In this document: in pieces, positions 26,443-57,800 of the stretch
How positions within the stretch are numbered: position 1 is the stretch's first letter
How the letters are laid out: each line of letters opens with the position of its first letter
Assembly: GCA_017654855.1 (NCBI GenBank)
Contig: JAFMPO010000001.1
Span: forward strand, 682,001 to 746,000
Length of the DNA: 64,000 nucleotides
Reading direction: 5' to 3'
Source of the DNA: Podospora anserina
Lineage: Eukaryota
Position numbers and translations under genes: made by a program
The notes under the pieces: generated by a model
What the model was told of the DNA's origin: nothing
Databases searched by the model: none
The model's input: only the letters and a program-made list of their open reading frames with translations

Positions 26443-27140
26443 TTTGGCTGGTGTGACGGCTTTTTGTCATGAAGGTGGTGGTGAGGTTGGGATGTGGGTG
26501 AGCTGAGGGAAGTGTCAGTCTAACATACGAATGAAGGGCGTGAAACATGCAAAACATACATTTCAGTCATAACCGGACCTCTTTCATCGAGTTTGGTATT
26601 CTCGTCTGAACTCTTCCTCAGGGCTTGGATAAATAATATAATTGTTCCCAAAATTTCGAACCGGCAGCACATGGAGCGGCCTGGTCGTGTTGCAGTGCCA
26701 ACTTGCAGCAAATGAAAGTGAAAGTGGGAGGATTCGTGTTTTGAGCAAACAAACGAAATTTGTAACTAAAAAGTCGAGTTTTGTTCGAGGTTCGTACCAG
26801 GCAATCAACAAAAGAGTGATGCGACTCAAAGGCGGCTCTGACTTGGTAACGGTGGACGGATTCAGCTCCAACGGTCACTTGTTACAAGCCAGGGACTCGG
26901 TGAACTCAACCGGTCGATGCTAGGTAGGTAGTCAGAGTCGTAAACCGGTCTTCAAAACTTGCCCCATTGTCTGTGAAAGGGCGGCAGGTGTGACTGACGG
27001 GGCCCCCTATATCAGCCAGCTCAGCTGTTTGCTCCTGCTGTTGAGTGTGTGAAGGCACCTTATCTGAAGCAATGAAATGCCGTCAGTGGTGGCACCACTC
27101 GACAGTTCACAACGCGACTTGATGAAAAGGCAGGGGGTCG

Positions 27141-27154
27141 ACATCACGTGATGT
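27141..27154. promoter_or_regulatory. Perfect 14-bp palindrome ACATCACGTGATGT containing a bHLH E-box
   Basis: Self-complementary sequence with ATCACGTGAT core, about 700 bp upstream of the GCP4-like start; function inferred. Confidence 0.4.
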
Positions 27155-27329
27155 ATTCATACCCCTGTGTAAGTCCTGCGATCTTCTCTCACTTCATCAT
27201 CACACACATTTCTCATCCGAACATCCCGTTCATATTACGTTAAATTATGATATCAAAACAGGACATTCCAAAACAACTCGTCATGGTAGAAAAGAATATG
27301 GCCCATACCTCGTCTGCCTCGCCAACATT

Positions 27330-28967
27330 CTACTTATAGATATCTCCGTTGCCGTTGCCATTCGCTGGTTGCTTCCCCTCCGCAACTGTCATTCCGCTCA
27401 GCGACTGTGTGTCAACCGACGACTTTCCTCCGTCATTATCAATAACAGCTGCACCGCCATCGCCCCCGCCCACAACGATAGACTCGCCCTTCGATGTCTT
27501 GCCCACAACCATCCCCTTGGCCACGCTCTTGATCAGGGCCCTGCGCGAGACGCCCGTTACATCAATGTAGACCAGTCCGACATTCTTGACGCCACCACCA
27601 ATCGACCTGCTCACCTCTCCTGCCTCGGGTCCCCACTTGTGCTGAACGACAGTTGTGGCGGCATCTGACGTCGACGCAAGCAAGTGACGTCCGGCCTGCT
27701 CTACACCGTCCATTACAGTGGAAAAAGCCATCATGCTCTTGTTCAGGATGCCTGGCTTATATGTGTCAAGCGGTTTGCCGTCCGGTCCATACCCCTTGTG
27801 ACCAGTGGTCGCCTTCTTGCCATGTCCACCGAGCGTCGCTCCGAGGTTCTGTGCAACTTTGCCAATCTGGCCTACCGTTTTGGCCGACAGAGTGGCCGCA
27901 CCGCCAGTAAAGGTGCCGATGCGACGGATGTGCTCCTTGGTGGTCGGCTTGAAGGTCATGGGCTTCGCAGCAGGCTCGGATCGCTTGGTGTAATTGTCGG
28001 CCTGGCCTTGGAGAAGTTTGGCAACCATGTCGGAGCCAGTGATGATGAGCCGTGAGGCAGCGTGCGCGTTCGAGACAAGGAAGGAATTCTTGTAGGCTGG
28101 ATGCAGCTCTGCATCCCACAGCTCAGGGGAGATAGGTGCCACCTGAACATTCGAACCACCATCGGCAGGGAGCGTGATCTCGACCGGATCTGCAACATCA
28201 CAATGGTTAGAAAGGACCCGTTATGCCGTGCCACACGGTTCGGACTCACCTTTCGATCCAGGTTTCAGGGAACTGTGCTCAACAACCTGGAAGTTCTCGG
28301 CAAGCTCGCCAATCACGCTGCCGTCCTCTTCATCAACCAAAACGATCTGTCCTGGCGCGTGAGCGGTGTTGGAGGGGCTTCCACGCGCATAAGCCTCGCC
28401 AGGTTTGAAGTCTGCTGGGTTATACGCGGGCAACTGTTCGCCTGTGGCGACAGCCGCCTTGGAGCCAGTACCCCCGCTGCTGACCTTCTGGTCGGTGTCC
28501 TCCCACCACTGCTTCTCGCTTTTTCCATGAATTTTTGGGGGCGGGGCCCTCTCGAGGAAAGCGGTGCATTGCGCCAAAATGGTCTCGAATGTGTCGACGT
28601 CCTCCTGGATCCCCTTTCGGCTTTGTACCGAGGGAAACTCAATCCTGGTGAATGCGCCGCTGTCCGGCCCCAAATCCCACCGCGGAATCAGGTAACTGGT
28701 TGGCGGCTGATGGTAGATTTGCGTGGTGGCTGGCAGTGGGAGATCGAGCTCAGGGGGCAGGTGAAGATGGAGGTAGAAGTCCTGCTCGGCGTTTGACGTC
28801 TCCGGGTCGATGGACGGGTCGGCGAAAACAGAGCTCGTAGGAACCATCAGCAGCGACAATGTCTGCGGGCCCGTTGGCGTGAGGGGCTGCTCCTTGCCAT
28901 TGGCGATATGGTATGCCTTTACGCCATTGATGGCATACAGCAGCTTTGGATCCTGTGGTTGGCGCAT
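27330..28967 (-). CDS. Senescence/spartin-associated domain protein; intron 28190-28249 (~525 aa)
   Basis: N-terminal LLY...GVKAYHI..G.E..L...GPQTLSL and YLIPRW..FTRIEF..FETIL. C-terminal senescence domain (ASRLIITGS...FSTVMDGVEQAGR.LL.ST..A.T.VV.HKWG.EAG...G.KNVGLVYIDVTGVSRRALIK). The intron GTGAGT..CTAAC..CAG joins the ORFs in frame. Confidence 0.85.
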
Positions 28968-31900
28968 GGGATTAGATTATGTGTTTTTTTGGTGGATTGG
29001 GGTGTCTGTGAGATCGGTGTGGCCAAGGTAGGTTACTCACATTGTGTCCAGAAGCCATTACGTCGGCTGTCCTTTCAGTTAATATGTGCCGATATTGTCG
29101 CCGCGCGATGATGCGGGATGTCCAGGTGTGTTGCACTCGAAAAAGGGGCGATGACGCTGCGACTTGGGCTTCTTTATCTCAGCCGTCAAGTCGATGAAAT
29201 CACCCAAAAACCGCTCGCCCAGGAAGATTGGTGTATGGCAAGAATAGCTCTGTCGCAATGGCACGATTTGACCAAGAAGGCGGGGTTAAATCACTTATCA
29301 CTTTCAGTTCTTGCCCCAACGAACAGTTCCAGTGTTCAAAATAGCAACAGCGAGACACCAGCACCCCGCGCAAGAGGTCCCAGGGCGCTTAGAGAGCTCC
29401 CCTGTGTGGAGCATGGGCGCGAGGCCTCGCCCTTCAAGGGCGACGTCATTGGTTTGCCGCATGAAATCAGAGCCTCCAATGCCACAAGATACACCTCTTG
29501 CATCCGCCACCGTGTCTATCATGAAACAGGGAACAAAAGGTGGAGAGTTTTATGCTCTGGTTAGCTCTACATCTTTTCTGATCTTCAGATATAGTTACTG
29601 ATGACGCATTTGTTTCACCGTTGTCACCTGCAGGGAAAAGGGTCGTTTATGCATGAAAGCCCGCTCGCTGTAGCGTACACATATAGAACCCCTGAGCGAG
29701 CTGGTTGCGATCATGGAACCTCCGGTTTTCTCCCCACGCTCCATGTCGGTAGTCGGCAACTCCAGGTGTTCATCCAACTCAGCGTGGCCGACGGATGTAA
29801 GGTCAACTTTGGGCCTCGCGTGCTCTGGCCGGTGTTTCCTTTTGTATGGTTTGTGGCGGCGTCCTTTTTGCTGGGAGTGCGGGGGAGGGGGGTGCAGTAC
29901 TTTGGAATAATTAGGTTGTGATGGTCTGACTGGCTGGAGTTTGAGCGTGCAAAGAGTGGTTGATGGCGGGGCACAGTTGTTGGTTACATAGCCAGATCGA
30001 GGGTGTTTGGGTCACGAAGAGATCGTGTCCCGCCCAACCTGGAAGACTGTGCAACTGTGAAGGAAACAGCCCAGTATCTTGCGTTGTTCAACTCGAAGCT
30101 GTCATGGCTGAGCTGCTTTCCACAGGCTCTTCTAGATAGGCCTTCCCTAGCCTCATCCAAGGCCCAACTTGAGACCTGGCTTCTTTAGCATACTGAACAA
30201 GGTGGTAAAGCAGAGTTCGGATGCCTGAGTGCAACCTGGAAGTCACGATCGAAACTGTTTGAGAGTTCCGAGGAAAAGAGCGTCGGGGGAGCTCGACTCG
30301 ATCGAATCAGGGGCGCATTTCCCGTTGCCGAGTGGCTGCAGGCACTCCCGATTCGGCTTCTTCACTGCGGCGGGTACCCATCAGTGTGCAGTTGCCGACC
30401 TGCAGTGTCCTCCCATCGTAGCAAAGCGTGAATACCCAACAAATCGAGGCATTTACCGCGAGAAAAACGACACTGCTTATAGTAGGCTTCTTCCAGGTCG
30501 TCGGTCTTTGATTCCGTTGGATTCCAGCCAACGGGGAGGCTTTCCGGCTTTTCAGGTGCTGTTTTGTTTTCCTGTACTCCGTATCTCGTCACTTCTTACT
30601 CCTCACGCATCTCCCGTCCCCTGTGCGTCTGCATGGCTCACAGATCGTCCCTTTGCGGACGTACCGAAAAGCCCTCTTCTCTTCCACCGCCCCTCTTGGA
30701 AAACAGGAACCCGTTGCGCTTGTTCCACCGTCCTCGGAACACTGACCTGACGGACAAGCCCAGCCTCGTCTTGTCAGCAGTTCCACCACAGAGGAGTTGC
30801 TGAGAGTCGGTCGTAAGCGACGTCGGCGGTCCGCCCGCCTCAAAACAGGCGAGTGTCCACATGCCGTTCGGCCCTAGAAACGATCCAGATGCCGGCCCTT
30901 TGGTGGGAGGAAGAGATCCTGGCCGGGAGTCAGGCGGGCAGTCTGTGAGCCAAATTGTCCTGCAAAACATAGATTGATAATGGGCGTAAACGAAGGGTTT
31001 TGTATTCAGGTCAACCACTCATAAGGCTTCGTTGCTGTTCCGTGCCGTGCCTGACTCTTCGACGCCGCCATCTTCTTCCTGTAAACAGCGGAAGCGGGGT
31101 GTTGCTCGAAAGCCGTGCCAAGGTCAAAGAAAAAGGCGCTAACCCAGGGCCCCTCTTGCCGACATCTCCCTTACCTGAGGGCGTTCTGTGGCCCGTGTGA
31201 GCGTTGAGCTTCCCAGGTCGCCGTTGGTCAATGCGCCTAGTACCAAAGAATGTCATTGTTTTCAAGACGAAGATCGTTTCACAACCTATCTAACATATCA
31301 AACATTGGGCGGATGTGTCAAGGGTCGCGTAGACTAGAAAGTACCTGTCTTCAAGCGTGGAGTGCAATGCTCCTTGATACCAGGCAGGCCCCATCGTTCG
31401 TCCCTGATGTCAATCCGTGACATGTCAAACTATGACCGTGGGTGGCTGCCCAAACCCTCAGCCCAGGCCGGCCCAGGTGCAAAACTTCGCGATATGGTAA
31501 CCCGGGAAGATGCTGTCCGAGCCGTCCCCGGAAGGGCTGTTGACTGGCTCTTGGCTAGATGCTAGCTTCCCCGTTCCTCGATGGCAGATGGCACTTCATC
31601 TTCAGGGATTTGCCTATGAACAGTCCAGCAGGAGAGGTCTCTGCGACTCTGCTCTGTGGAATGCCAGTCCTCACTCAGTGCCGTCAAATAAAAAGACCGC
31701 AACGGGCCACTTCTTTTTTTTCCCCATCGCCTCTTTTTTGGGATTCCCCGTCCGTTCCACCACGTCCAGCTCCAAATAGCCCAGGCCGAAGAGATATCGA
31801 ATCGCCGTCAACGACACCAACCAAACCCCCGTCCGTTTTCCGATCGATCCCCAAACATCCCGTCCACTGCCGCCCCCGTCAGGTATCCGTACCTACGCTA

Positions 31901-32350
31901 CAAAAAAAAAATCCCTGACCTGGAACTGTCCACCCTCGCTCTCGGAACTCGGAGCTGCTTCGCCTGACACTGACGCACCCGACCCTGCCGACACACTGTT
32001 TGTTGCTTGTTGGCCGTTGCTTGCTGTTCCGAATTTCTCTCGATCTGGATGTAGATTATCTGAATTATCCTTTTTCCCCTCTTCTCTAGCCCCCTAGCTG
32101 CAAGCTGCGTCCACCCTCACGGCTTGTGTTGTTTGTCTGCACCATCGTGCCTCTGTGCAGCCAGTAGCATCTCGTGTGCGTCCCAGTCCCGCCCAAGCCC
32201 AAACACCACCGCGCCGTTTCCCGCCCGCCGTTTCCCACCTCACCGTCTTCGTGCTCCCCGACTAGATCAGCTTCCAAAGGCTCTCTTCTTATCAAGCAGC
32301 ATAGAGGCTAACCAGCAAACTAGTCGACCATCCCGTTGCGCGTCCCACTG

Positions 32351-32459
32351 CCGCTCCCGCTCCCGCTACCGCTACCGCTACCTGCCGTACGGAGTATCCG
32401 TTGGCCACAACCACCACACGCGCGCAACCTCCACGACCCACGACCCACGACCCACGGCC
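32351..32459. repeat. Short tandem repeats (CCGCTM)5 and (CCACGAC)3-4 in long TF leader
   Basis: ccgctc ccgctc ccgcta ccgcta ccgcta at 32351; ccacgac x3 plus ccacggc at 32431. Confidence 0.8.
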
Positions 32460-33085
32460 TGGCCCACGCAGCAGGCTAGATAGCATCGGCATCGTTAGGA
32501 TCGGATCAACTCAACAGCTGCGTTTCGGCGTCACATTGCTCTTCGGGTAGACACACCCTTTTTCTCGCTATCTGTGGCCCTTGACTCGTCCGGCCACCCG
32601 CGCGCGCAAAGGACGGCTACGTGCATTTCTTGTCGACGCTGTAATACCTTGTGCCAACGCCCGTTCGACTGTTCTGGTAGCACTGGCCCGTCCGGGAAAC
32701 CCTCTCTGCCACTTGTCTGCGCTGCCTCGACTGGGCTCCCCCCCCTCCCTCCCCTCTCTCGCGCCGCCGTCGTGCTTCCGTCTTGCCGTTGCCCGCCCTC
32801 CCCCCCTCCCTGATCCTATCATCTGGGTATCTCGCCGCGCTCCCTCCGAAGTGTGAGTACCTTCCGTACCCTATTTAGTCCCGTCCGCTCTTCGATCCGC
32901 CCGACGACACCGACTACCTAGCCTCGGCTCTCCTCCCCCTCCCCGTGCCCTGCACATCGCTTTCCGCCGAGCGGTCTCTCTGCAGTAGCAGTCTGTTGCA
33001 CTGTGGAGTGTGGCCCAAGGACGGCCTTGTTTCTTGACAGCGCCTGTATCAAGGGGTCCCCTCGCGAGACCCAACCGCCGTCACA

Positions 33086-35447
33086 ATTGCGTCCCAGCTG
33101 CGCATCCAGTCCATCTTATCCCCGGCCGATCCGTCGGAGCAACCTCCCCCGAAACGAAAGTTTCACGACGCCTTTGCCGGACCGGCGCCGGAACCATCTC
33201 CCGCACCCACGGAGTGGCCTTCACCGGCCCCTCCACCGCCCTCGGACCCGGCACCACCAGACCGGCTACCGAATATTCGACAGCCGCTTCCACACAGCCC
33301 GCCGCGCCCCTCTGCGGCCGGGGGCGGGAACCGCGCTCAACAACCAACTCCGAAGCCTGTCGTCGTCCCTGACGATGACAGCCGGGTACCAAATTCGGCT
33401 ACAATGATGGCTGGCAGCCCCAGCAGTCCGGGCACTGCGGACAGTCGACGGGGAGCCAATGCGAAGCGGCCAGCTCAGCGATCCAGCATTGCGTGCCAGA
33501 GCTGCCGCAAGTCAAAAATCAAGTGCAACAACACAGGTGGCGATTCGCCGTGCGACACTTGCATCCGAAATGGCAAAGAATGCACCTATCCAGAAGCGCC
33601 GCCGGTGCAGCCTAAGCGCTCAGAGCCCCCCGCCGGTCCAAAGGCGGAGCAGGGCACTGAACGCAAGCGGGTGCGGAGGATGGAGGATATCGTGAAGATG
33701 GAGGGTGCCGTGCCGGCCGCTATGATCGCCGAGGATGTGCTATCGATGCCGTATCTAAACGAGGCTGTTTGGTCACAACTGTTTGACATATACCGGCTTC
33801 ACTTTGCGACCGAGTTGCCTTTCCTGCACTTGGCAACGTTGAAGGAGAAGTTGGGGAGCAGATTCAGGGCTAAGCCCAGCGATACATCCCCAGAAATCAA
33901 TCTTGTGCTGCTCGGCATTCTGACCTTGACGGCGCGCTTCCATCAGACCTTGGTATCATATGTTACCGTGCCGAAGAATGCATCAAGCGCTGCTGCAACA
34001 CCAAAACCGCAGCCCCCTGGACCTGACCTCAAGGCGTCTGTGGCGTCGGAGTACTATGCCGAGATCCTGACTAAAGCTCTAGGCGGGCTGAGGACCAGCA
34101 TGACGGTGGCCTCAGTGGAAAGAGTTCAAGCTTTCCTCATGCTTGGCTTGTACGAATGGAGCCAAGCGGTCCCGAGAGTTGGCGGCATGGCTGCGTGGAT
34201 GTATGTCGGTGTGGCTATCCGCATGGCCCAGGCCTTGGGTCTCGGCCATGGCGATGGGGAACCCGGAAAGAAGTTCAGCATGCGACCTGCGCTCGCGTCA
34301 GGGCCTAGCATTCCTCACTCACAAATGATTATCGCCAAGGAGATTCGAAGGAGGACCATGTTCAGTTGTCTGATACTGGACCGTCTTTTGGGCTGTGGTA
34401 AAGACCGGGTGTCTACGATTCGATCTGAGGACCTCCGGATTCAGCTCCCATGCGCCGAAATGTCGTTTGATCTGTCAGAGGACGTTTTTACGGGATTCTT
34501 GAACCCTGTCCCGGGAATCGACAAGAAGCGGCCTATCAGCGACAGTGTCCTGGGGCGTTTTGTACGTCTGGTTGACCTTTGGGGCGAGATCTCACGGTGG
34601 AGCTTTGCGGGTGGTCGCTTCACCGAGACGGAAGCTCCATGGCACTCGGCATCGAAGTTTTGCCAGCTGCGCGAGAAACTCGAGGGTTTCTACGCTGATC
34701 TACCTCCCAACTTCCAGTGGTCGGACTCTAACTACTACAAGCACGAGAACCACCAAGCGAGTAGCGTGTATGTTTCGTTGCATATGCTCGGTGCTGTTTG
34801 CAGGATAATGCTTCACCGGGAGTATATCCCGTTCATCCCCATCCGCTGTGACAGGCCTGTGGGTCCGCTCGACGAGCCCGTGTTCACTGAGGGTCAGGAG
34901 CCGGCCGGCTTCTGGGACACCAGTGCCGAGGAGATCTTCCGTGCGGCGAGGGACATTGTTGACTTGGTGGAAATCTGTGGCGACAAGCTGCCCATGTCAG
35001 CACTGGTTTTGTTTTCTGTCTGGACTGCAGCCTTTGTCGGTATCTACGCCGTCCATTTTCCCCACATGGACACCAAGGGCCACATGCTCCCCTCCTTTTC
35101 AGGTGATCTTGAAATCACCAAAAACGGTCCTACTGGGACAACCTTCTCCACCCTCAAGCAGATGTCCCGGTGGTTGAAGCTGGCCGAGACGTACTGCAAC
35201 TACTTCCGTGAGATGGCTTGCTACTACGAAAAGGTCAAGTCAGACTGGGACAAGCACAGCGGTAGGCCGGGCAACAACGAGGGCAAGCTCATCAGCGTGC
35301 GGTTAGGCGGTGGCGGTCTCGAAGAGTGGCAGAAACAGAGTCGAAAGATCATCAATAACGGTGAGATACTCGGCACGGGCGGCCCAGACGACAAGCAGTC
35401 CTCCCGAGACAGCACCGTCGAGCCAAATTCCCACCAACAGCAACAGC

Positions 35448-35487
<40 letters not shown>

Positions 35488-35929
35488 CCACGAAGAGAAG
35501 CCCTCCCGGTCAACTTCATTCACCCCGATCAACTCTTCCAACCACCACCCCCAACCCTACCATCATCAGTCGCACGACTCCAACGGCAAAATGGAAGACA
35601 ACGCTGACAACTGGCGCTTCCACCCACATCACCCGCATCAACCATCCCCTTCTCAGTCATCTACCACGATCCCCTCGCCAGAAATGCCCATGGTTTCCTT
35701 CCCGACGCTGCCGCTGGGGTACTCGTCGAATGAGATTGTGAGCTATGTGGCCGAGGCGCAGAGCATGCCCTGGTTTCATGCTCCCGGGGGGATCGACCAA
35801 TTTGCGCACGGGACAAAGGAGAGCGAGACGCTGGATAACGGGAATTTGTTTTGGGGGAGTATACCGGAGGCTATCTTGATGGGGGCTGGGCCCGGGGGGC
35901 AGGCGCAGATGGGTGGGGGTTTTGCTTAG
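33086..35929 (+). CDS. Zn(II)2Cys6 fungal transcription factor; first in-frame AUG 33404 (841 aa), probable AUU-initiated long form from 33086 (947 aa)
   Basis: ACQSCRKSKIKC..PCDTC..GKECTY binuclear cluster, fungal TF middle homology region (VQAFLMLGLYEW..AWMYVGVAIRMAQALGL..EIRRRTMFSC.ILD) and poly-Q C-terminus. The frame is open upstream to a stop at 33035. Family call is high confidence; the AUU start is moderate. Confidence 0.92.
33375..33407 (+). promoter_or_regulatory. Out-of-frame uORF MTAGYQIRLQ* whose TGA overlaps ATGATG of the TF
   Basis: ATG at 33375 (acgATGa), ending caa TGA at 33405-33407 inside ATG(33404)ATG(33407). Confidence 0.6.
35435..35486 (+). repeat. (CAA/CAG)n poly-Gln coding microsatellite
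   Basis: Direct read; about 17 Gln. Confidence 0.9.
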
Positions 35930-37170
35930 TTGGGTAGGATTGTGGTGAATGACCATGTATGTGTGTGCTTTTTGCAAGGGGCGATGTGCTTTTTGAGAGA
36001 GAAAGATGGTGATTTGGTGGGACATACTTTGACTGAATATGGATTGGAATTTTTTATTTTATTTTATTTTTTGATTATTTATCCGTGTGCTTTTACTGGT
36101 TTGTCATCTGTTTGTTGTGTTTTTGTCAAGTTAAGGGCGGCGGTGGGTATATGTTATCTCGCATTAGGGGTTCAAGGAGCGGGGGGGGAAGTGGAATGGG
36201 AAAGAAAGCTTGGTTATTTATCACTTATAACTTGAGACCGAATTTTTTTTCCTTTTTTCTTTTTTTCACGCGCTTGTCTGTTCTAGGAAAACTCTTCTCT
36301 GGCTTTTGGATTTGTTTTTGGATGCGTGTACGAAAACAAAGGTTACGGACTTTGGTTAGGTAAGTAGGGTATGAAGGGCAGGTTTCATGTGATCCACATG
36401 TTTGTTTTCATGATGTTCTATATGACGGTGCTCTTTAAATGGGCAAGGCTGTGGTCGATGTGGTTATTGGTTTCATGGGAGGGCATTTGTTCTTGAAACC
36501 CGGTTTTCTTTGTGGTTTGGCAATTACCATCTACATGGTTGGGGAAATAAAAATGAACGTGGTGGAAGTAATGAATGGCCACCTTCAAGAAGAGTTCGAT
36601 ACCGGGGGCTGTGGCCTGTGTTTACGTGGTGAAACATTAGGTTGAAGCTGGCTGTTCGAAAATATTTATAGGAAATTTGGGGCGGGGGTTGGGCAAGCAG
36701 GGAAAATGACAGAGTCAATGACCAAGGGCAAATTGTGGTAGGGTGTGATGAAAACTGACGTTGGTTTTAAACACACTTCTTTCAGCACAAGAGCCAGTCC
36801 TGTCGATGAGGTTTTGTATGGGGCTTTATTTCCTGTTTCTCGCTGGAACATGTATTTTTGTTTCTCTTGAACTGTGTAGGTAGGTAAAGTTACACTCCAC
36901 GTGTACAAACCTCGTCTTGCTTGTTGCTGCTTTGTCAAGGTACATGATGGCTTGCCGAATGCGGCCAGGATAGGTTGGTAAGGTATGTTCGACCTTTGAA
37001 TTCCAGTACCAAGTGCATCAACGAGAATCCGGTCTTTGTTTCAGCATGCTGCTAGATAAACCCAGACGAGTAAGTCCACCAAGCTACCGTGTTGCACCTG
37101 CAAAGAGCTCGACAAAGTTTCCACAAAACCAACATCCTGAAATCCAAACCACTTAGCCAGGGCAGCAAAT

Positions 37171-39431
37171 ATGCCACCGGAAAGATCACCGAGGCCCAGC
37201 AATGCTGGCGTAACTAAAGTTCCTGCTGGCCCCAGTAATACTGGTGCCTCTGGTAACACCATTGTGTACGCTCTCCAGAGGTTGACAAGAAGGCAAGAAA
37301 GAGAACTTGCCGACAGATTAGCAGGCACGATCAACGTCCAGCACGCTCCTGTTAGAGAGGATCACACTCGCCCTCAAACCCTTGAAGAAGCGACCTACAG
37401 GAACGTCGCGCTCTTCTTGCCGATCGAGTATTGGCCAAACCAAAGAAATGTCGAATCAGCAGCTCACAGAATGCGCGCCGCCCTAACGAGCAATCAAGCG
37501 TTTAGATTTCAGAATCTCGGGGACCCGCTAAGGCAGCATTGGTACGCAGATGAGGAATCGGGACGAACAGTACAGCAGATGTACAAGGGGTGGAGTGACC
37601 AGTTTGATGAGAAGCTTAGACAGACACACCAAAACATCCGGGCAGTAGCCAACGAACTCGGCATGACTGACGAGGATAGCCAAAACAAGGTGTGGAAGAG
37701 AATGGAGAACATCTTTGGTGACGCCGCGAAGATCAAAAGGCTCGAAAAGGAACTCGCCTCGGCGAAGGAGCTTGTTGAGAGTTACCACACTCAGTACAAC
37801 TTTCTAGATCCAAAAATCGAGTCCAACGCTAGGAAGATAGAACGACTTCAGACGGACGTCAAAGCCAAGGACACGCTCATCAGCAAGGCGGATGCAGAGA
37901 GCGACAAGTACAGGGTTGACTATCGTCTTCGCATGCTCCTCCAGCATTGGGGAATCACGAATGGGGATCACCTGGACCCAACCCGGTGGCAAAAGTATGA
38001 CAATGCGAACCGCTTTGCCGCGGAGTTTCAGGAATATCTCGACGACGTGCTGAATGGCATACCGACATCTAGCGGCAACCTCCTGGTGCAGGTCAGGCCG
38101 CCCATCGGTGTCAAGCAGCTGATGCGTGTGGCCTCGGTACACCGAACCGTCCACGGGGTCGACCTTCTGGCCGACTGCCGAGTTGTAGCTCTGCGACTTG
38201 TTTCGGCTCGACATGATGAGGCAAACACCACCGAGGTGGGCCTGTTGCCCAAGGACCTTGAAGGTCGTTCAGAGGGCGAGACGTTGAGCCAGGTCTATGT
38301 TCCTCCTCCGCCCCCTCCAACCGTATCAGCGGTGACGACTGGCATGGCACAGTTGACGACCTCTAGCCAAAGAGCCCAGCTCACGGAAGAGCAGCGAGAA
38401 GAGAGGGCCCGGGCGATCAAGATGGAAGCCCAGTTCTTGGTCGAGCCTGGAGCGACAAACGAGGAGCGTACCTGGCAAGCGCTGTTCGACGGGACAGTCC
38501 TTCAACTATACAACCTGGACGCCATCGCCTGCGAGCATATTCGTAAGTACCCATCTGTGCCGGGGAAAAGCTGATGACTGACAAATAAACCCACCTCCCC
38601 AACAGTCGTAGCCTTGACCGGACGCAAATCGCTCACCAGTCGACAGTTGGAGGAACGCAACATACTCCAGAGCCATGTCGACTTCATTAACAAATGGGCT
38701 TCCATCATGGAGATGGTGCACCTCTACGCCAAGAAGGCCCAGCTCCGTCCAGGCTCGTGGAAGCTGTGGGGCGGGCACTGGTTCAGAATCCGAAACAGGA
38801 TGACGGAGCAATGTTTCGGCGCCCACGATACTCTCGCACCCGGCCAGAGCCCTTGGTCGAGAAGGACCAAGCGCGGCCTCTTTCACGACTACGTCGGCCT
38901 GTTTGGACAGACGTGCAAGCTCTTCAATCAGCCGGCCTTGCAAACCGAAGAGTCGTTCAAGAAAGAGCTGCACCGGCTCGACATGGAACGCTGGAACCTC
39001 TACCGGTATGCCATTCAGACATGGACCCATGGCGACGCCAGGGGCGGGATCAACGACAACGGCCAGTACCGCGGTAATCCGCCAAAGCCCACGCACCCCA
39101 AGAAGGCCAACATATGGGCGGAATGGAACTGGATCTATGAGACCGATCAGTGGAAGTATGCGCCACGGCTAGACCCCAAACAGCCTCCTGGAGCTCGTAA
39201 GTGTTGGCAAGTCTCTGGTGGACTTCGATGCTAACAGCACCTCTAGCCGCCCTTTGGGACCCCCTCATTGGAACAGAACCCTTCAAAGACTTCAGCCCTT
39301 ATGGTCCTGTCAGACTCGCGATCAGGTTCGAGGAGCATAACAACCCCCACGCGAATACGTGGGGGATCGTCAATAAAAAGAAGCACCCACCAGGATGGGA
39401 TTTACAGAAAGCGAGGCTTGGGGTCTTTTGA
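37171..39431 (+). CDS. Hypothetical protein (orphan-like, coiled coil plus Trp-rich C-terminus); exons 37171-38542, 38606-39196, 39247-39431 (~715 aa)
   Basis: Three consecutive ORFs joined in frame by two canonical phase-1 introns (GTAAGT..CTGAC..CAG and GTAAGT..GCTAAC..TAG). No recognised domain. Confidence 0.75.
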
Positions 39432-39780
39432 ATCCTCCACCAAAGAAAACGAAGTTCGTTACATATTCTACAACCTGAAAACTAAAATAAAATTATCTAA
39501 AGTGTTTTCATATGAATACGGACAAGCAGGCAAAGAAACAGCCAAGCGCTCTTATAGCGCCCCACTGTGAAACAGGAGAAGTAATCCGACTGAAGAGAAG
39601 GGCGAAGTCATGGATAAAAAGAAAAAGGTCAACACACCGAATACACAACTAACTCCCATGCCGTGGTCAAGGAACCCCTCAACCTCCACGCACGCTTTTC
39701 CTGTATAAAACAAACTCTCTTGCAATGTTTATTCCAGACCTGATGTGTGGTATTGAAGAAAGACCAACATCTCCCGACAA

Positions 39781-42700
39781 CTATCTGTTCTCCATCTTTT
39801 TGATCAGATTCCTAACCGGCGAGTTTTTCACAGCAGGCGTTCCCACCCTCCCAGCGACGGGTGGAGGCGGTGACGATACGGGCGTCTGGGGTGGCCCCGG
39901 CGAAAAGGGAATTGCCCCGGTGCTACTAAAGACGGGCAAATCTCCTCTCTTCATCGGGGCCATGGTCGACACGGGAGTGGCCACGTTGGGAGGCAGCCAC
40001 TGCAGTGGTTGCTGTTGCTGTTGAACATTCGACTCAGGGGTAGGGCCATCAGGATGATAATGGACGAACATATCCATCGGGGTTGGAGTTGAGGTAGTCC
40101 TGTGGGGCGAAACTCCACGAACGGGACTCGAGAAGGTGGGAGTGACAGAACTCATAGCGGAGTTGGAAAAGGTTTCAGAAGCCGGGTAAAGCGGAGATGC
40201 TGGCGATTCTGAAGGTTGATAATGGCCTGGTGATGATAAGGCAGGCAGAGGGTAGTTCTCTGCGGCTGACGCAGGGGGGCTCGAGACAAAGGTGGACTCA
40301 GTGTCGGATGGGGTGGCGGGAACCGTCTGGTTTTCCGGTGGTTGAACTGAGAGGAGAGGTTTATTTTCGTTCGGCTCGGTAGGCACCGTCACAGAGATGG
40401 TATCTGTTGCGGCAAGTTTGGCTTGCGCATTTCGTTCCCGTTCCCGAGCGTCACGCACCGCCTTGGACACAACAGTGATCTTAATCTTCTTCATGTCTTT
40501 CGCCAGCTTATCGACTTCGTCACCACCCTCGCCACCGGACTTTGGAAGTTCGGGTGCTGCCACAGCGGGGGCACCAACATGTTTCTTGGAAACTCTTGGG
40601 GCTCTGGGAACAGGCTCCTTCTTGGCTGGGGCCCGAATTTTTCTCACATTGATTCCGGAAGCATTGGTCCGAACACTTGCGACAGAATCAGATCTGACAT
40701 GCTCCAACCTCGAGCCGGCACGTATCGGTGCTGTAGGAAGTGGCGGTGCCGAGTCCACAGTCTCCGACACCGCTGTCGACGCCGTTGTCGACGCAGTACT
40801 AAGTCGCCGACTGGGGGGTGGTCTTTTCTTCTCCGTAGCAAGCACTGCTGGTCCGGCGACTGTTTTTCGTCGTGATTTGCGATCATCGTCCTCGTCTTCC
40901 AAGTACGTCGGCCTAGTTTTACGCTCTCTTAACGACATTCTGGTGGGTGCTCGTTCTACAATCACCGGAGGAGGAACGTCAACCGGCATAGTCTGTGGAT
41001 CTGCATCTTCTGCACCTTGAGCCAAGGCAAACTGACGTTCGCGCCGGGCTCGAGTTGCCTCTGCGCCAAGCTCCTCATGAGTGCAGCTGTCCGTCTGTCG
41101 TCCTGATGGGATCAGCAATCTGCTTAGTTCGAGAGCTGCTGTGGTCCACGCAACGTCAGGTGGAGGAGGTGTAGGCGCCCTGTAACTATGGCCGTGGCTG
41201 TTTGGTACGCCGAAACCTGACACACTGCGGCGAGTATTCTTTGGAGGCACAGCTGCTCTAGCTGCTGATGCTTGTGTTGGCGAAGAGTAGGTGGGCGGAA
41301 TGACATTTCGAGGCTTCCTGATCTCAACCGAGGGGGCACTGATGGCGGCTTCGAGTGCTTCAAGCTCTGGAACAGACCACCACGATGGGTCATACTGACG
41401 GGCTCGGTCCTCTTTTGGTGGGTTTCCTTTCACAGCCTCTACTGTGCCCAGCTTCTGGCCCATCTCGTAACCAAGTCCAGAGGGAGCTACCTCCTGCTTG
41501 GCGCGGGGACCATCGCCAGCGAGACCACATATGTGGCTCAGTACCCCCGAGCACAAAGCCCGATCGCTGTAACCGCCTTCCAGAACGCTGATAACCCGCC
41601 CCTCCACACTTGTGCCCTCTTCGGCAGCAATCTTGACGACGTCTCTGGTTAGTCGGGCATAGAATTCAGTCGGGACATTGACGTTGTGCCGTTGCATGCC
41701 GGGGCTTTCCCACTCGCTGGCGTCAAAACCGGCAGACAAAAAGATGGCGGCTCTTGAATTCACCCCCTGAGCACGTAGTTTCTCGGTCTGGACCCTCAAG
41801 TACTCCCGAGTCTTGTCTAGCAAGATCGAGTATTTGGACTCGTACAATGCCCAAAAGTCGGTCTCTGTCTTCCATGGCTGCAGATGAACATTCCAGATAC
41901 TCTGGCCGTGCGCGTTGTCGATGCATATGCTGGCGTTCCTAACCTTGTCTTCATCGCCCATCTCGCACGGGTAAGAGTTGATGTCGTGCAAACTAAAGTA
42001 CCCAATCGATGTTTTCTTCCACCAGGCTGCATTCTTACCCAGCCCAGCGGACCTCGCATTATGTAGCCAGGCAATGGACTGGGAGCCATCGCCGTGATGA
42101 AGGTCGAAATCGATGATCGCCGCGTGGGTCAGACCGTGGCTGAGGATGGCGTGCATGATACCGACATGAACATTGTTTATCCAGCAGAACCCTGACGGAT
42201 AGGAGCCAGAGCAATGGTGACCAGGCGGTCGGATGGCAACAAAGGCCCGCTGTGGCCCCTGGGGACGAAACACGGCATCGACCGCATCACATACACCCCC
42301 CAATGCTCCCTCGAGAGCCTCCAAGGTTTCTGCGCAGAGATATAGATCCCCCTCATGAAGCTTTTGAGGAGCGCCCGTGTTGGCCCCGCGGTCGATATCT
42401 GGTCGCTGGAGCTCTTTTCCGTTGACGGCCAGCTTCGATTCGGCCGTCTCACACATGATCTTGAGCTCTTCCATCCATTTCGTACCGTGGACATTGGTCA
42501 CCGTCTGGGAGGTTAGCGGAAGTCGCCTGTCGCTTTTTTGTATTCGAAAAGGTATTGTGGGCAGCTGCGCCGGGTTGGCCTTTGGGGCAATTGGAAAGTC
42601 CCCATCCTGATGTCGTTCGCCCAGCCGGACATATGCGGCCGATACACCCAGGACACAGGCCTTAACCCTCTCTGGTCGTTCGACAATGGTGCTGAGCTGC

Positions 42701-51412: not shown

Positions 51413-51852
51413 AGTCGATTGGGAGTGACTGGACTATCTTGCTGATAGCTCCATAATGTACAACATGTTCTCTGTAGAAATATATACCATGTGAGCCATT
51501 TCCCTTGTACTGATGTCTAAAGGCATTGTTTACTATTGTTGGCTCAAGTTTTTGGAGCAACCGTCAGAGTGAATCCGGGAATGCCTCAGCCGCAGTTGCC
51601 CCACCTCAAGTGGCAGCCACAAAATAGTAAGCTTCACCAGCTCACCAGCCACACCCCAAAAGATTGGCATGCCCTAAGCGCACGCAACCCCCACAATTGC
51701 AGACCCACTCTGAAAAACCACCACAGGTTTGGCGAGCTCGACTGCGAGAATCCTCTTGCTTCTTCTTTTCTGTGTCCGAAACTCCAAGCGTCGCCCTCGG
51801 TAGGTCTTTTTTTCCCTTCACCAACAACCAACCACCACACCAAACCGTCAAA

Positions 51853-54806: not shown

Positions 54807-57800
54807 ATGTCGTTCAAGGTCAAGGCCTTGTACGAATACAACTCGGGCCACGAAGATGACCTCATTTTCAGCGTCGGCCAGATCATAACCGTGACCGACG
54901 AGGAAGATGCCGATTGGTATGCGGGGGAGTACGTCGACGAGGCCGGCAACAAGCAAGAGGGTATTTTCCCCAGGAATTTCGTCGAAAAGTATGAGCCTGC
55001 AGCACCTCCTCGTCCGGCAACACGGCCCCAGTCCAAAAGGGAACATAAACCCGCCGCCGAAGCTCCGATTCCAGCCCCGGAATCTCCGAAGCACGAAGTT
55101 GCTCCGGAGCCTGAACCTGAGCCCTTGAGATCTCCCTCGCCCGAGCCGACGATTTCCTCTCCTCCGCCAGCACCTGCGGCTGTTCCGGTGCCAATTCAAT
55201 CTGCCCAAGCTCCCGCCTCCCCTCCGGCTCCCGCACCCGCCCCTGTTCCAGTGGCCGCGCCCGCACGTCCTGTTCCCCAGCCCACTGAGGCGCCGTCTGC
55301 CGCAAAGTCGCCCCCTGCGCCCAAGCCTGCTGCCGTTGTCTCCAAACCCAGTGCTGTACCTCCACCTGTCTCTGATAAGCCAACCGGAAATTCTTTCAAG
55401 GATCGTCTTGCTCTTTTCAACAAGGCAGCTGCAGCCCCCCCCGCCCCCTTCAAGCCTAGCGGGCTGAGCTCAGGAGGCGGCTCGAGCTTCATCAAGAAGC
55501 CGTTTGTTGCCCCCCCTCCTAGCAGGCACGCCTATATTCCACCGGTCACCCAGGCCCCTGTTGCTAAAGTATATCGTCGTGATGAGGATCCGGAGGTCAA
55601 GGAGCAAGAAGCCGAAACGCTGGAGAATGCTGGAAAAGCGGGACTTGTTGGTAATACGGCACCAACCTCATCAAGGAATGAGGGTGAAGCCGCTGATGAT
55701 GAACCCAAGCCCATGAGCTTGAAGGAGCGCCTCGCTCTTCTCCAAAAGCAGCAAATGGAGACTGCGGCTCGTCATGCCGAGGCTGCTGCCAAGAAGGAGA
55801 AGCCCAAGAAACCAGTGAAGAAACGTTTGGATAGCCACGATGCCACTGCCGCCGAAGGTGAAGCTACTATTCCTGTTCCACCCCCTCTGGAGCGTCGCGA
55901 TACCGAAGACACCACAGGCCGCGGCTCTCTGGATGAATCTCACCCACCTCGAATCCCGCACCCTGGGCGTCGCAGATCTTCAAGAGGAATCGAACCGAAT
56001 GATGGTAATGAGGCTGATATGTCTGGGGCTGGCGAGACCACCGAGGGTCTGGAGGAGCTCACCGAAAAGGAGGAAAATGACGTCAGACCAAAGCATGTTG
56101 CTACTGCCGCGAAACAAGACGATGATGAACAGGCTGATGAGGAAGATGAAGAGGAAGAAGAAGAGGAGGAGGAGGATATCGACCCAGAGGTTCGGCGCAA
56201 GGAGGAACTGCGCGCAAGAATGGCCAAGATGTCAGGCGGTATGGGCATGCCGGGTATGGGCATCCCTGGGCTGTTTGGTGCCCCGGCACCTATGATGCCC
56301 AAGAAGAAGAAGGCCGCCCCTGAGAAGCACATTGAGGAGCATGAGGAGCCGGTCTCGCCTACTGCCCGCGCGCCCCCCGTTCCTATGCCCGGCATTCCTT
56401 TGCCTGGGCTCTCGCGCCCACCGCCGCCTCCCGAGCGAAAACAGTCTGCTGCCGAAGAGGTGGAAGATGACGAGGACGAAGCCCAGCTGCAGACTCCCCA
56501 TCAGGAAGCTGCGCCAGCCCGTATGTTGTTTGTCGAGCACCATCTCAACAAAGCTAACACAGGTGTAGAAACGCCCAACGAACATAGCGCACCCCCCCCT
56601 ATTCCTGGCGGGAGATCAGCTCCCCCCCCTGTTCCTTCTCTGGACTGTGAGTATAGTGATGCCCATCGTTTTGCACTGTGGAGTGTCATTATTAACCTCG
56701 CAAAGCACGTCCGCCACCACCACCGCCAACTGCGTCGGCGATTAAGTCCCCGAGCGAAGGGTCGGTGTCTGACGACGAGCTCTCCGAAAGGCCCAATGAT
56801 GAATCCGATACACCAAAACCTGATGTAGCCCATGCGACTAGAGCTCCTCCTCCCCCGCCACCTGGGGCTGGCGGTCCTCCACCACTGCCACCTACATCAC
56901 CCCGGGCTGCCCCCCGTCGGTCTCCTGATGAGAGCCCTCCAACTTCACCATCGGCACCTGCTATTCCCAGGCGCGACAGCAGGGCACCGCCTCCAATCCC
57001 TGGCGCCGCCCCTCCACTCCCCACACAGAGCAGACCTCCTCCTCCGCCTCCCACAGCCGCGCCCCCGCTGCGTAGGGATTCAACGGCTGACACCCGGCCG
57101 CCCCCAATTCCCGGCGCACCACCAAGGGACGAGGATAGTGGTGACGAAGAAGAGATCACCGAATATGAGGGCGATTACGACACCGACATCGCCTCGTCGG
57201 TTCCTCACAAAGATGCGCTCAAGGCCCATCAGCGGGAGTCGAGTTTCGAGGATATCGGACCGAGATCGCCAACGAGTGAGGCGCCCCCGCTTCCTTCCAC
57301 AGCGGTCCCGAGAGCAGGACCTCCTCCAATTCCCAGTCAGCCTCCCCCTCCACCAAGTGCGCCAGCGCCCTCGCGCAAGTCTGTAGATGCGCCCCGCACA
57401 GCCCCCCCTCCCCCTCCCCCGCCGAAAGAGGCGCCGCCTGCTCACTACGATGATGAGTACGATCCATACAACTATAGTTCGTCTTCTCAGGCAGCTCCAG
57501 CTGTTCCGTCATTCCCGATGCCCTCTCCGCATGTCAGGCAGAACGAGGAGACATCGGCGCATGAGACCCTCCAGTTTTCCCCGCCACCTCCTCCCCCTCA
57601 GAACCTGAGGTCGCCTATCCCCCCTCCTATTTCCTCACCGCCAAACCGAGCTCCTCCGCCGAGAAAGTCGCTGGATGTCCCCCGTGGTAGCGGTGGAAGA
57701 CGTTCGGTCGATGTTACTCGGCCTTCCATGGAGTCTGGGTTTGTTGCTAATGACATTGATCTAGCCAACCAGTCAGGATGGTGGCTGCAGCCCAACGGCC

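Follow-up and report, generated by a model that had tools for sequence, protein, structure and literature searches.

Where does a transcription factor begin when the frame ahead of its first in-frame AUG is open for 122 codons and holds no start codon of the usual kind? This question is raised by a Zn(2)Cys(6) transcription factor gene of Podospora anserina. The DNA analyzed, referred to throughout as the window, is a stretch of 64,000 nucleotides (nt) (NCBI GenBank assembly GCA_017654855.1, contig JAFMPO010000001.1, positions 682,001 to 746,000 of the forward strand), and all positions given below are counted from its first letter. Judged from conservation between species, the 106 codons at 33086-33403 are almost certainly coding sequence of this factor, without an in-frame AUG. 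The extension that they encode probably starts at the AUU codon at 33086. Coordinates of the features are collected in Table 1.

Reading frame of the transcription factor

The frame of the factor is without stops from 33038 to 35926 on the + strand, between a TGA at 33035-33037 and the stop codon at 35927-35929. Its first in-frame ATGs lie at 33404 and 33407, and no ATG, GTG or TTG is found in frame between 33038 and 33404. The in-frame ATT at 33086-33088 stands in the context ccgtcacaATTgcg. Read from this codon, 33086-33403 is translated into 106 residues, and the long form of the protein comprises 947 amino acids (aa). The G+C content of the region is approximately 65%.

An earlier reading, made from the letters alone (the sequence-only reading), had proposed the stop-free frame from 33038, the in-frame ATT, the 106-aa extension and the 947-aa long form, and all of these were found in the sequence. 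Its remark that the ATT shares 7 of 8 upstream bases and the +4 G with another start in the window was borne out at 51845 (ccgtcaaaATGggt). The open reading frame (ORF) that opens there is presumably RPS17-like.

Coding conservation of the extension

Orthologous DNA was collected by a metagenome scan that yielded 23 loci, 17 of them with the N-terminal region. After two duplicates were dropped (L006 and L014, which repeat L005 and L002), 15 distinct loci remained, giving 16 sequences with the window. Also dropped were L013, which starts inside the gene, L021-L023, which are other Zn-cluster genes, and L015 and L020, which are rearranged degenerate copies. The metagenome loci show 43-64% protein identity. 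Among those with a named neighbor, L010 shares 86% identity with a Colletotrichum protein, L016 and L019 are closest to Zalerion and Seiridium, respectively, and the best named match of L007 is in Cytospora.

Between the Ile codon and the first Met, the extension frame is uninterrupted in 15/15 rows; stops interrupt the +1 frame in 11/15 and the +2 frame in 15/15. L008, L011 and L012 gave the same frame result. Extension lengths are all different in 13 sequences (87-133 codons), and the conserved blocks are still in frame. The ratio of nonsynonymous to synonymous differences per site (pN/pS) in the extension was 0.27-0.51 in 9/9 pairs vs 0.94-3.57 in the shifted frames, from an alignment guided by the frame-0 protein and so mildly biased toward frame 0. 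Jukes-Cantor-corrected dN/dS was 0.15-0.57 where dS was unsaturated. Downstream of the ATT, variation falls at third codon positions (Leu as CTA/CTC/CTG/CTT/TTG, Arg as CGC/CGT, Ser as TCC/TCT), and in 20 aligned proteins residues L5, R6, I7, Q8, S9, I10, S12 and P13 are invariant. Upstream of the SQLRIQSILSP block the protein models have nothing in common.

The sequence-only reading had looked to orthologs for a conserved near-cognate codon, a conserved frame and a bias toward synonymous change. All three were seen, with ATT in 14 and ATA in 2 of the 16 sequences and the frame kept over the 13 lengths. The stops or frameshifts that it had named as contrary evidence occur in no functional-looking ortholog, being confined to the degenerate L015 and L020.

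In a rival account the extension would be an untranslated relic in this species, protein would be made from AUG 33404 only, and the conservation would reflect an RNA or DNA function of the leader. The closest named proteins, from Podospora pseudoanserina (99%) and Triangularia verruculosa (P0003, P0004; also P0133-P0135), are indeed annotated from an AUG, nucleotide sequence is conserved in the leader just upstream, and near-cognate use can be below 1% in vivo. Between the window and its relatives, however, pN/pS was 0.40-0.51 in frame and at least 1.0 in shifted frames. The frame is held over 13 different extension lengths, the amino-acid blocks are conserved with synonymous variation, and before reaching the annotated AUG a ribosome would meet the out-of-frame AUG at 33375. 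An untranslated relic is accordingly regarded as very unlikely.

Transcript and AUG-free leader

A run search gave 20 matches, none on record as RNA, and contigs of four of these runs, from four studies (X1, X9, X10 and X14), were aligned over 27000-41000. The four are labelled as presumed RNA; they were taken as transcript assemblies from splicing alone, because introns of neighboring genes are missing from the contigs. The canonical introns skipped (GT..AG or CT..AC) were 28189>28250, 28951>29040, 29558>29633, 38542>38606 and 39196>39247. Gap-free cover of the gene extended over 32324-35425 in X1, 32090-35425 in X9, 32798-35425 in X10 and 32975-35425 in X14. Joints in the leader were limited to 32050>32324 (X1, X10, X14) and 32175>32324 (X10), both GT..AG, the second using an alternative donor after 32175 and skipping 148 nt. 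The donor at 32050 splits the sole nearby ATG (32049) as AT|GT, and the spliced junction reads AT+T.

Splicing at 32855 or 33040 was seen in none of the four transcript assemblies. The in-frame TGA at 33035-33037 is therefore retained in the mature mRNA, and an upstream AUG cannot feed the extension. The contigs of the four runs hold no differing letters at 33086-33088; since they agree there, the ATT is not a sequencing error. A candidate intron at 32855-33040 (GTGAGT ... acag) was rejected by the same contigs.

The leader is free of ATG to an extent not expected by chance. Leader exon 2 has 0 ATG vs 4.73 expected (P=0.0015), and the spliced leader (31662-32050 + 32324-33085) has 0 vs 8.05 expected, with 0/2000 shuffles ATG-free. 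The + strand is without ATG over 32052-33374, and no other ATG-free gap in the window matches the 1326 nt between 32049 and 33375, the runner-up being 668 nt. The ATG-free part of leader exon 1 is 31662-32050; ATGs at 31510-31661 are included only if transcription starts farther upstream. Because Neurospora leaders are long and AUG-rich (PMC7049704), an AUG-free leader stands out here.

It is conceivable that a minor or condition-specific transcript joins an AUG-bearing exon to an acceptor near 33040 (ttgacag|), which would remove the TGA. An acceptor-like ttcttgacag ends at 33040, GTGAGT is present at 32855, the TAG stops of L004 and L017 are also acceptor-like, and contigs do not report rare variants. 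Such a transcript is nevertheless extremely unlikely to account for the extension, since 4/4 assemblies are unspliced through 32855 and/or 33040, ATG is absent from both 32052-33374 and 31662-32050, stops stand 4-8 codons before the ATT in L008, L012 and L019, and a conserved upstream peptide is found in no ortholog. The sequence-only reading had envisaged two ways in which an ordinary start might be supplied, an AUG exon spliced in frame at 33040 and an ATG at 33086 in reads or orthologs. Neither was seen: the contigs cross 33040 unspliced, and the ATG is absent from contigs and orthologs alike.

Table 1. Positions of the leader, start region and protein features in the window
Feature	Positions	Strand	Basis and remarks
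Leader exon 1	31505-32050	+	X10 contig covers; joint 32050>32324 in X1, X10, X14; 5' end undefined
Leader intron	32051-32323	+	GT..AG, gctaac branch-like site, ctag acceptor; 273 nt skipped in 3 runs
Leader exon 2 upstream of proposed start	32324-33085	+	762 nt, no ATG in any frame; X1 cover
In-frame TGA closing the factor's frame upstream	33035-33037	+	Sequence; in mature mRNA per contigs
Palindrome-like nucleotide element GGGGTCCCCTCGCGAGACCC	33053-33072	+	Alignments and folds; 13 nt upstream of ATT
Start context ccgtcacaATTg	33078-33089	+	-8 C, -7 C, -6 G invariant (13 sequences); -3 A in 16/16
Proposed AUU initiation codon	33086-33088	+	Only in-frame near-cognate in 33038-33403 with A -3 and G +4
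N-terminal extension, 106 codons	33086-33403	+	Conserved blocks ASQLRIQSILSP, PKRKFHDAF, DRLPNIRQPLPHSPPRP, DDD; predicted disordered
Out-of-frame (+1) 10-codon ORF	33375-33407	+	First AUG after AUU; UGA overlaps AUGAUG 33404-33409
AUG-started ORF, 841 aa + stop	33404-35929	+	Form annotated in closest named relatives
Zn(2)Cys(6) binuclear cluster	33491-33598	+	Long-form residues 136-171; PF00172, E=4e-09
Fungal-specific transcription factor domain	33785-34684	+	Long-form residues 234-533; PF04082, E=1.2e-20

Start codon and its context

ATC was seen in 0/16 sequences at the codon aligned with 33086, while it makes up 277/400 of the other Ile codons in the same ORFs and, at the two invariant Ile columns that follow, stands in 11/13 and 10/13 sequences. 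All 16 sequences lack an in-frame ATG from the upstream stop to the ATT or ATA codon. In 14/16 the first ATG met going upstream is at a distance of 63-1150 nt; the contigs of L007 and L010 end before one is reached. Counted in codons from the ATT, the upstream in-frame stop is at -4 in L012, -7 in L019, -8 in L008, -12 in L002, L004 and L017 and -17 in the window, and farther away in the rest. The ATT is the sole in-frame near-cognate in L008, L012 and L019. The window has nine in-frame near-cognates before the AUG, of which the ATT alone combines A at -3 with G at +4.

The character of the conservation also changes at this codon. Upstream of it, the would-be third positions -7 and -4 are fixed or nearly so and -9 and -5 vary, and a conserved upstream element stands 11, 13, 14 or 15 nt from the ATT, a spacing that does not change in steps of three. 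Conservation upstream is at the nucleotide level, and the frame is not kept. The substitution pattern and the spacing together place the switch from nucleotide-type to codon-type conservation at the ATT.

The extension might instead be translated from another near-cognate, either CTG 33044 in the window or an ACG before the ATT in orthologs, the ATT being then an ordinary Ile codon. CTG 33044 is in frame, 14 codons upstream of the ATT; a CTG is present at -13 to -16 in L001, L003, L016 and L018 and an ACG at -1 in L001, L003, L004, L005 and L017, and Cryptococcus LeuRS has been described with ACG and AUU starts side by side (PMC7049704). Against this, CTG 33044 stands in a context of C at -3 and T at +4, stops separate such upstream positions from the ATT in L002, L004, L005, L008, L009, L012, L017 and L019, and the ACG is missing in 11/16. 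For an ordinary Ile codon one would mostly expect ATC, which is never found at the start position, and substitutions and indels upstream of the ATT are not codon-like. Initiation at one of these other codons is considered distinctly unlikely, and AUU 33086 the probable start.

Proposed initiation and points against it

The explanation favored as a whole, and thought likely, is that the gene carries a coding extension of the NCU06990 ortholog that is initiated at AUU 33086 within an AUG-free leader. The 43S complex would scan a long, spliced leader without AUG, and part of the complexes would initiate at AUU 33086 with Met-tRNAi in a context of A at -3, G at +4 and CCG.CA at -8 to -3. The product would be the 947-aa protein opening (M)ASQLRIQSILSP, the best-conserved block of the extension. 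Ribosomes passing the AUU would meet the out-of-frame AUG at 33375, whose 10-codon ORF stops inside the AUGAUG at 33404-33409. The in-frame AUGs would be met next and could yield a short form of 841 aa.

The mRNA structure, the lack of an AUG, purifying selection at the protein level and the conservation of codon and context across Sordariomycetes are shown by the sequences and contigs. From these we infer that AUU is the codon used and that both isoforms are made. The extension, which is predicted to be disordered and has a basic PKRK block and Ser-Pro sites, would be regulatory, and the ratio of long to short isoform would be tied to the stringency of initiation.

Several points weigh against this explanation, in addition to the alignment bias given with the pN/pS values. 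The open frame by itself is not beyond chance, since 986/5000 dinucleotide shuffles of 33038-33403 (122 codons) were stop-free. The +1 frame is also open over the extension of the window, and of 11 further long ORFs in the window, three likewise run open for 100 codons or more ahead of the first ATG. It is the ATG-free leader and the cross-species pattern that lie beyond chance, not the open frame in the window. The metagenome loci are interrelated, and counts across them are not independent events. G is found at +4 in only 7/16 sequences. CTG 33044 is available in the window, in its poor context, and ACG directly precedes the ATT in 5/16 sequences and ATC in one (L016); because ACG or ATC adjoins the ATT in some orthologs, the exact start codon may vary by species. 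Transcripts starting upstream of 31661 may carry upstream AUGs, the contigs leaving the 5' end unfixed, and contigs drop rare variants, among which a minor spliced isoform may exist. Translation from the AUU is deduced from sequence and transcripts. Finally, the near-cognate codons of N. crassa cpc-1 gave <1% of main-AUG reporter activity in vivo (PMC5487733).

Downstream AUGs and the upstream element

The +1 ORF ends in the UGA of AUGAUG in 10/13 sequences and is 7-12 codons long in all 10; the arrangement may represent a stop-start overlap. The AUG of this ORF arises at an Asp codon spelled GAT, though GAC dominates elsewhere. A further +1 AUG is found at +52 to +58 after the ATT or ATA, inside a D-A-D-E block, in 12/13 sequences, and is missing from the window because the D-A-D-E segment is deleted there. 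GAT before G, which creates out-of-frame AUGs, accounts for 30/60 Asp codons in extensions vs 27/111 in the main coding sequence, as phylogenetically non-independent counts. The first in-frame Met of L010 and L019 comes just 6-7 residues before the Zn cluster. Taken together, the downstream-AUG features suggest that many species make chiefly the AUU form.

A palindrome-like element 10-15 nt upstream of the proposed start is kept in 15/16 sequences, and L012 has an unrelated 8-bp stem in the same place. The element at 33053-33072 may form a hairpin, as it does in most single-sequence folds. RNAalifold retained 3 pairs, and covariation of the named 5-bp helix was within the range of shuffles, 224/500 and 245/500 of which reached its score in the MAFFT and model-fitted alignments, respectively. 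A covariance model of the element missed L012. The z-score of the minimum free energy of the fold averaged -1.08 over the 16 sequences and was +0.51 in the window, where the fold is no stabler than its shuffles.

A more far-reaching proposal can be built on these features. The AUU form would be the principal functional form across Sordariomycetes, and the leader would act as a translational switch. More than 1 kb of AUG-free leader, a stem element 10-15 nt 5' of the AUU at the exit side of the 40S subunit helping to capture the scanning complex, out-of-frame AUG 'traps' and the short +1 ORF would together set the isoform ratio by start-codon stringency (eIF1, eIF5 or eIF2 status). This proposal is put forward as speculation and is rather doubtful.

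Annotated relatives

When the 947-aa reading was used as query, the family was found throughout Sordariales and beyond. The pattern TI[AS]SQLRIQSILSP...PKRK[FY].DAF...RQPLP is present in frame in many models from Chaetomiaceae, Lasiosphaeriaceae, Sordariaceae and Zalerion, and TIASQLRIQSILSP..PKRKF.DAF..RQPLP in named Sordariales models. The N. crassa ortholog is NCU06990. Neurospora and Sordaria models of near-identical orthologs (P0040, P0123-P0132, P0139-P0141) range from 716 to 1182 aa and have at least five unrelated N-termini joined just before TIASQLRIQ, a scatter of the sort that gene callers give where an ATG is lacking. The four best matches of L010 in Colletotrichum do not start until residue 88 of its extended ORF, which leaves six residues ahead of the Zn cluster.

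Searches with the extension alone gave one match (P0018, E=2.5e-4) among 1.84 billion representatives, and a word-based search gave 13 matches, all of them Sordariales orthologs already found, with no relatives outside and no gain in taxonomic breadth. Within the first 106 residues of the 947-aa reading no Pfam domain was detected. The three motifs of the extension that the sequence-only reading had called typical of fungal transcription factor N-termini are, by the Pfam and extension-only searches, specific to their own ortholog family, and the wider claim found no support.

In the literature found by gene identifier, the sole mention of NCU06990 is a row in a knockout-screen table (PMC5940138). 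No description of a non-AUG start for this gene was met in the literature found; the supplementary tables of PMC5487733 and PMC7049704 could list further candidates. The case is apparently undescribed, and its kind is already known, as with cpc-1 and idi-4.

An AUU start would also account for a widespread annotation problem. Models of this gene either drop some 90-130 conserved residues or add unrelated N-termini by way of invented ATGs or introns, and annotated proteins of Colletotrichum-type orthologs retain just six residues ahead of the DNA-binding domain. The gene is uncharacterized, and an AUG-based construct in any functional study would express a truncated protein.

Protein domains and other observations

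In the 947-aa reading the Zn_clus match scored 36.9 bits (cut-off 21) and the Fungal_trans match 74.1 bits (cut-off 23) in Pfam. An AlphaFold model of this form, made with 20 sequences, had a mean predicted local distance difference test (pLDDT) score of 41.9, with 28-43 over the extension. In this low-confidence model the extension is not confidently folded. The 841-aa protein of the window compares with 834 aa in the closest named relative, the difference being mostly in a poly-Gln run. This CAG/poly-Gln run, at 35426-35501, is the break point of all RNA contigs.

At its upstream end the X9 contig begins at 32090, inside the leader intron, and may reflect either retention of this intron or a second start of transcription. 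The X1 contig continues from the upstream + strand gene (29558) to 31251, while the other runs stop at 30136-30323; this may be read-through toward the leader of the factor. Elsewhere in the window, long ATG ORFs at 57518 (+), 54807 (+) and 22306 (-) are preceded by 274, 102 and 102 open codons, respectively, before the first ATG. These open stretches may be spliced exons or further non-AUG cases.

The degenerate copies L015:3001-5759 and L020:3001-3849 are interrupted by stops and frame breaks and show Cys>Tyr changes within the Zn cluster. The G+C content is 0.48 for the whole L015 locus and 0.56 for L020, and in L015 a remnant of the ...SILSPPDPS... block persists in a different frame. By their sequences the two look like inactivated duplicates.

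Comparison with known systems

Both precedents named in the sequence-only reading, cpc-1 and idi-4, are as stated there, according to PMC5487733. N. crassa cpc-1 has conserved N-terminal extensions from near-cognates, AUU included (Ivanov et al. 2017, PMC5487733). With it the present gene has in common that it encodes a filamentous-fungal transcription factor, with a long leader and a stop-free in-frame extension (that of cpc-1 is conserved across Pezizomycotina), as well as conserved near-cognates, including AUU, in good context and inconsistent automated annotation of the N-terminus. The cpc-1 product is a bZIP protein, and its mRNA has two regulatory AUG upstream ORFs and several candidate near-cognate starts; the present gene, unlike cpc-1, encodes a Zn2Cys6 factor and has a leader without AUG, a single conserved codon position and stops close upstream. 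Whereas cpc-1 was tested in vitro and in vivo, the extension described here is known from sequence and transcripts. For IDI-4 of P. anserina a CUG start has been proposed (cited in PMC5487733). Here the likeness lies in the genus and in a transcription factor with a proposed non-AUG start, that of IDI-4 being conserved in N. crassa. IDI-4 is a bZIP protein with CUG, in contrast to the AUU and the other protein family of the present case.

In Cryptococcus, near-cognate extensions are reported for ArgRS, from AUU, and for LeuRS, from ACG-AUU (Wallace et al. 2020, PMC7049704). An AUU in strong context is common to these (theirs cccaccAUU, gccaccACGAUU) and the present gene, and the ACG-ATT pair of LeuRS recurs in 5/16 orthologs (gtcACGATT). 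In that basidiomycete the extensions target housekeeping enzymes to mitochondria, whereas here a segment with a basic block, predicted to be disordered, belongs to a nuclear regulator. With respect to structure-assisted near-cognate initiation, the element described here is upstream of the start and not downstream.

N-terminally extended proteoforms with non-AUG starts have been found in mammals by phylogenetic criteria (PMC9789052 / 10.1101/2022.05.02.490320), and a PTEN proteoform initiated at AUU appears among the references of PMC5487733. The manner of detection is shared, namely a conserved in-frame extension without AUG and with a near-cognate at the edge of conservation, in another kingdom and in other genes. 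Among the few non-AUG starts known in filamentous fungi the present gene is a well-supported addition, and its AUG-free leader makes for a design simple enough for direct test. It is distinct from the known filamentous-fungal cases in that the protein is a Zn2Cys6 factor and not bZIP, in one start position conserved class-wide and in a leader without AUG.

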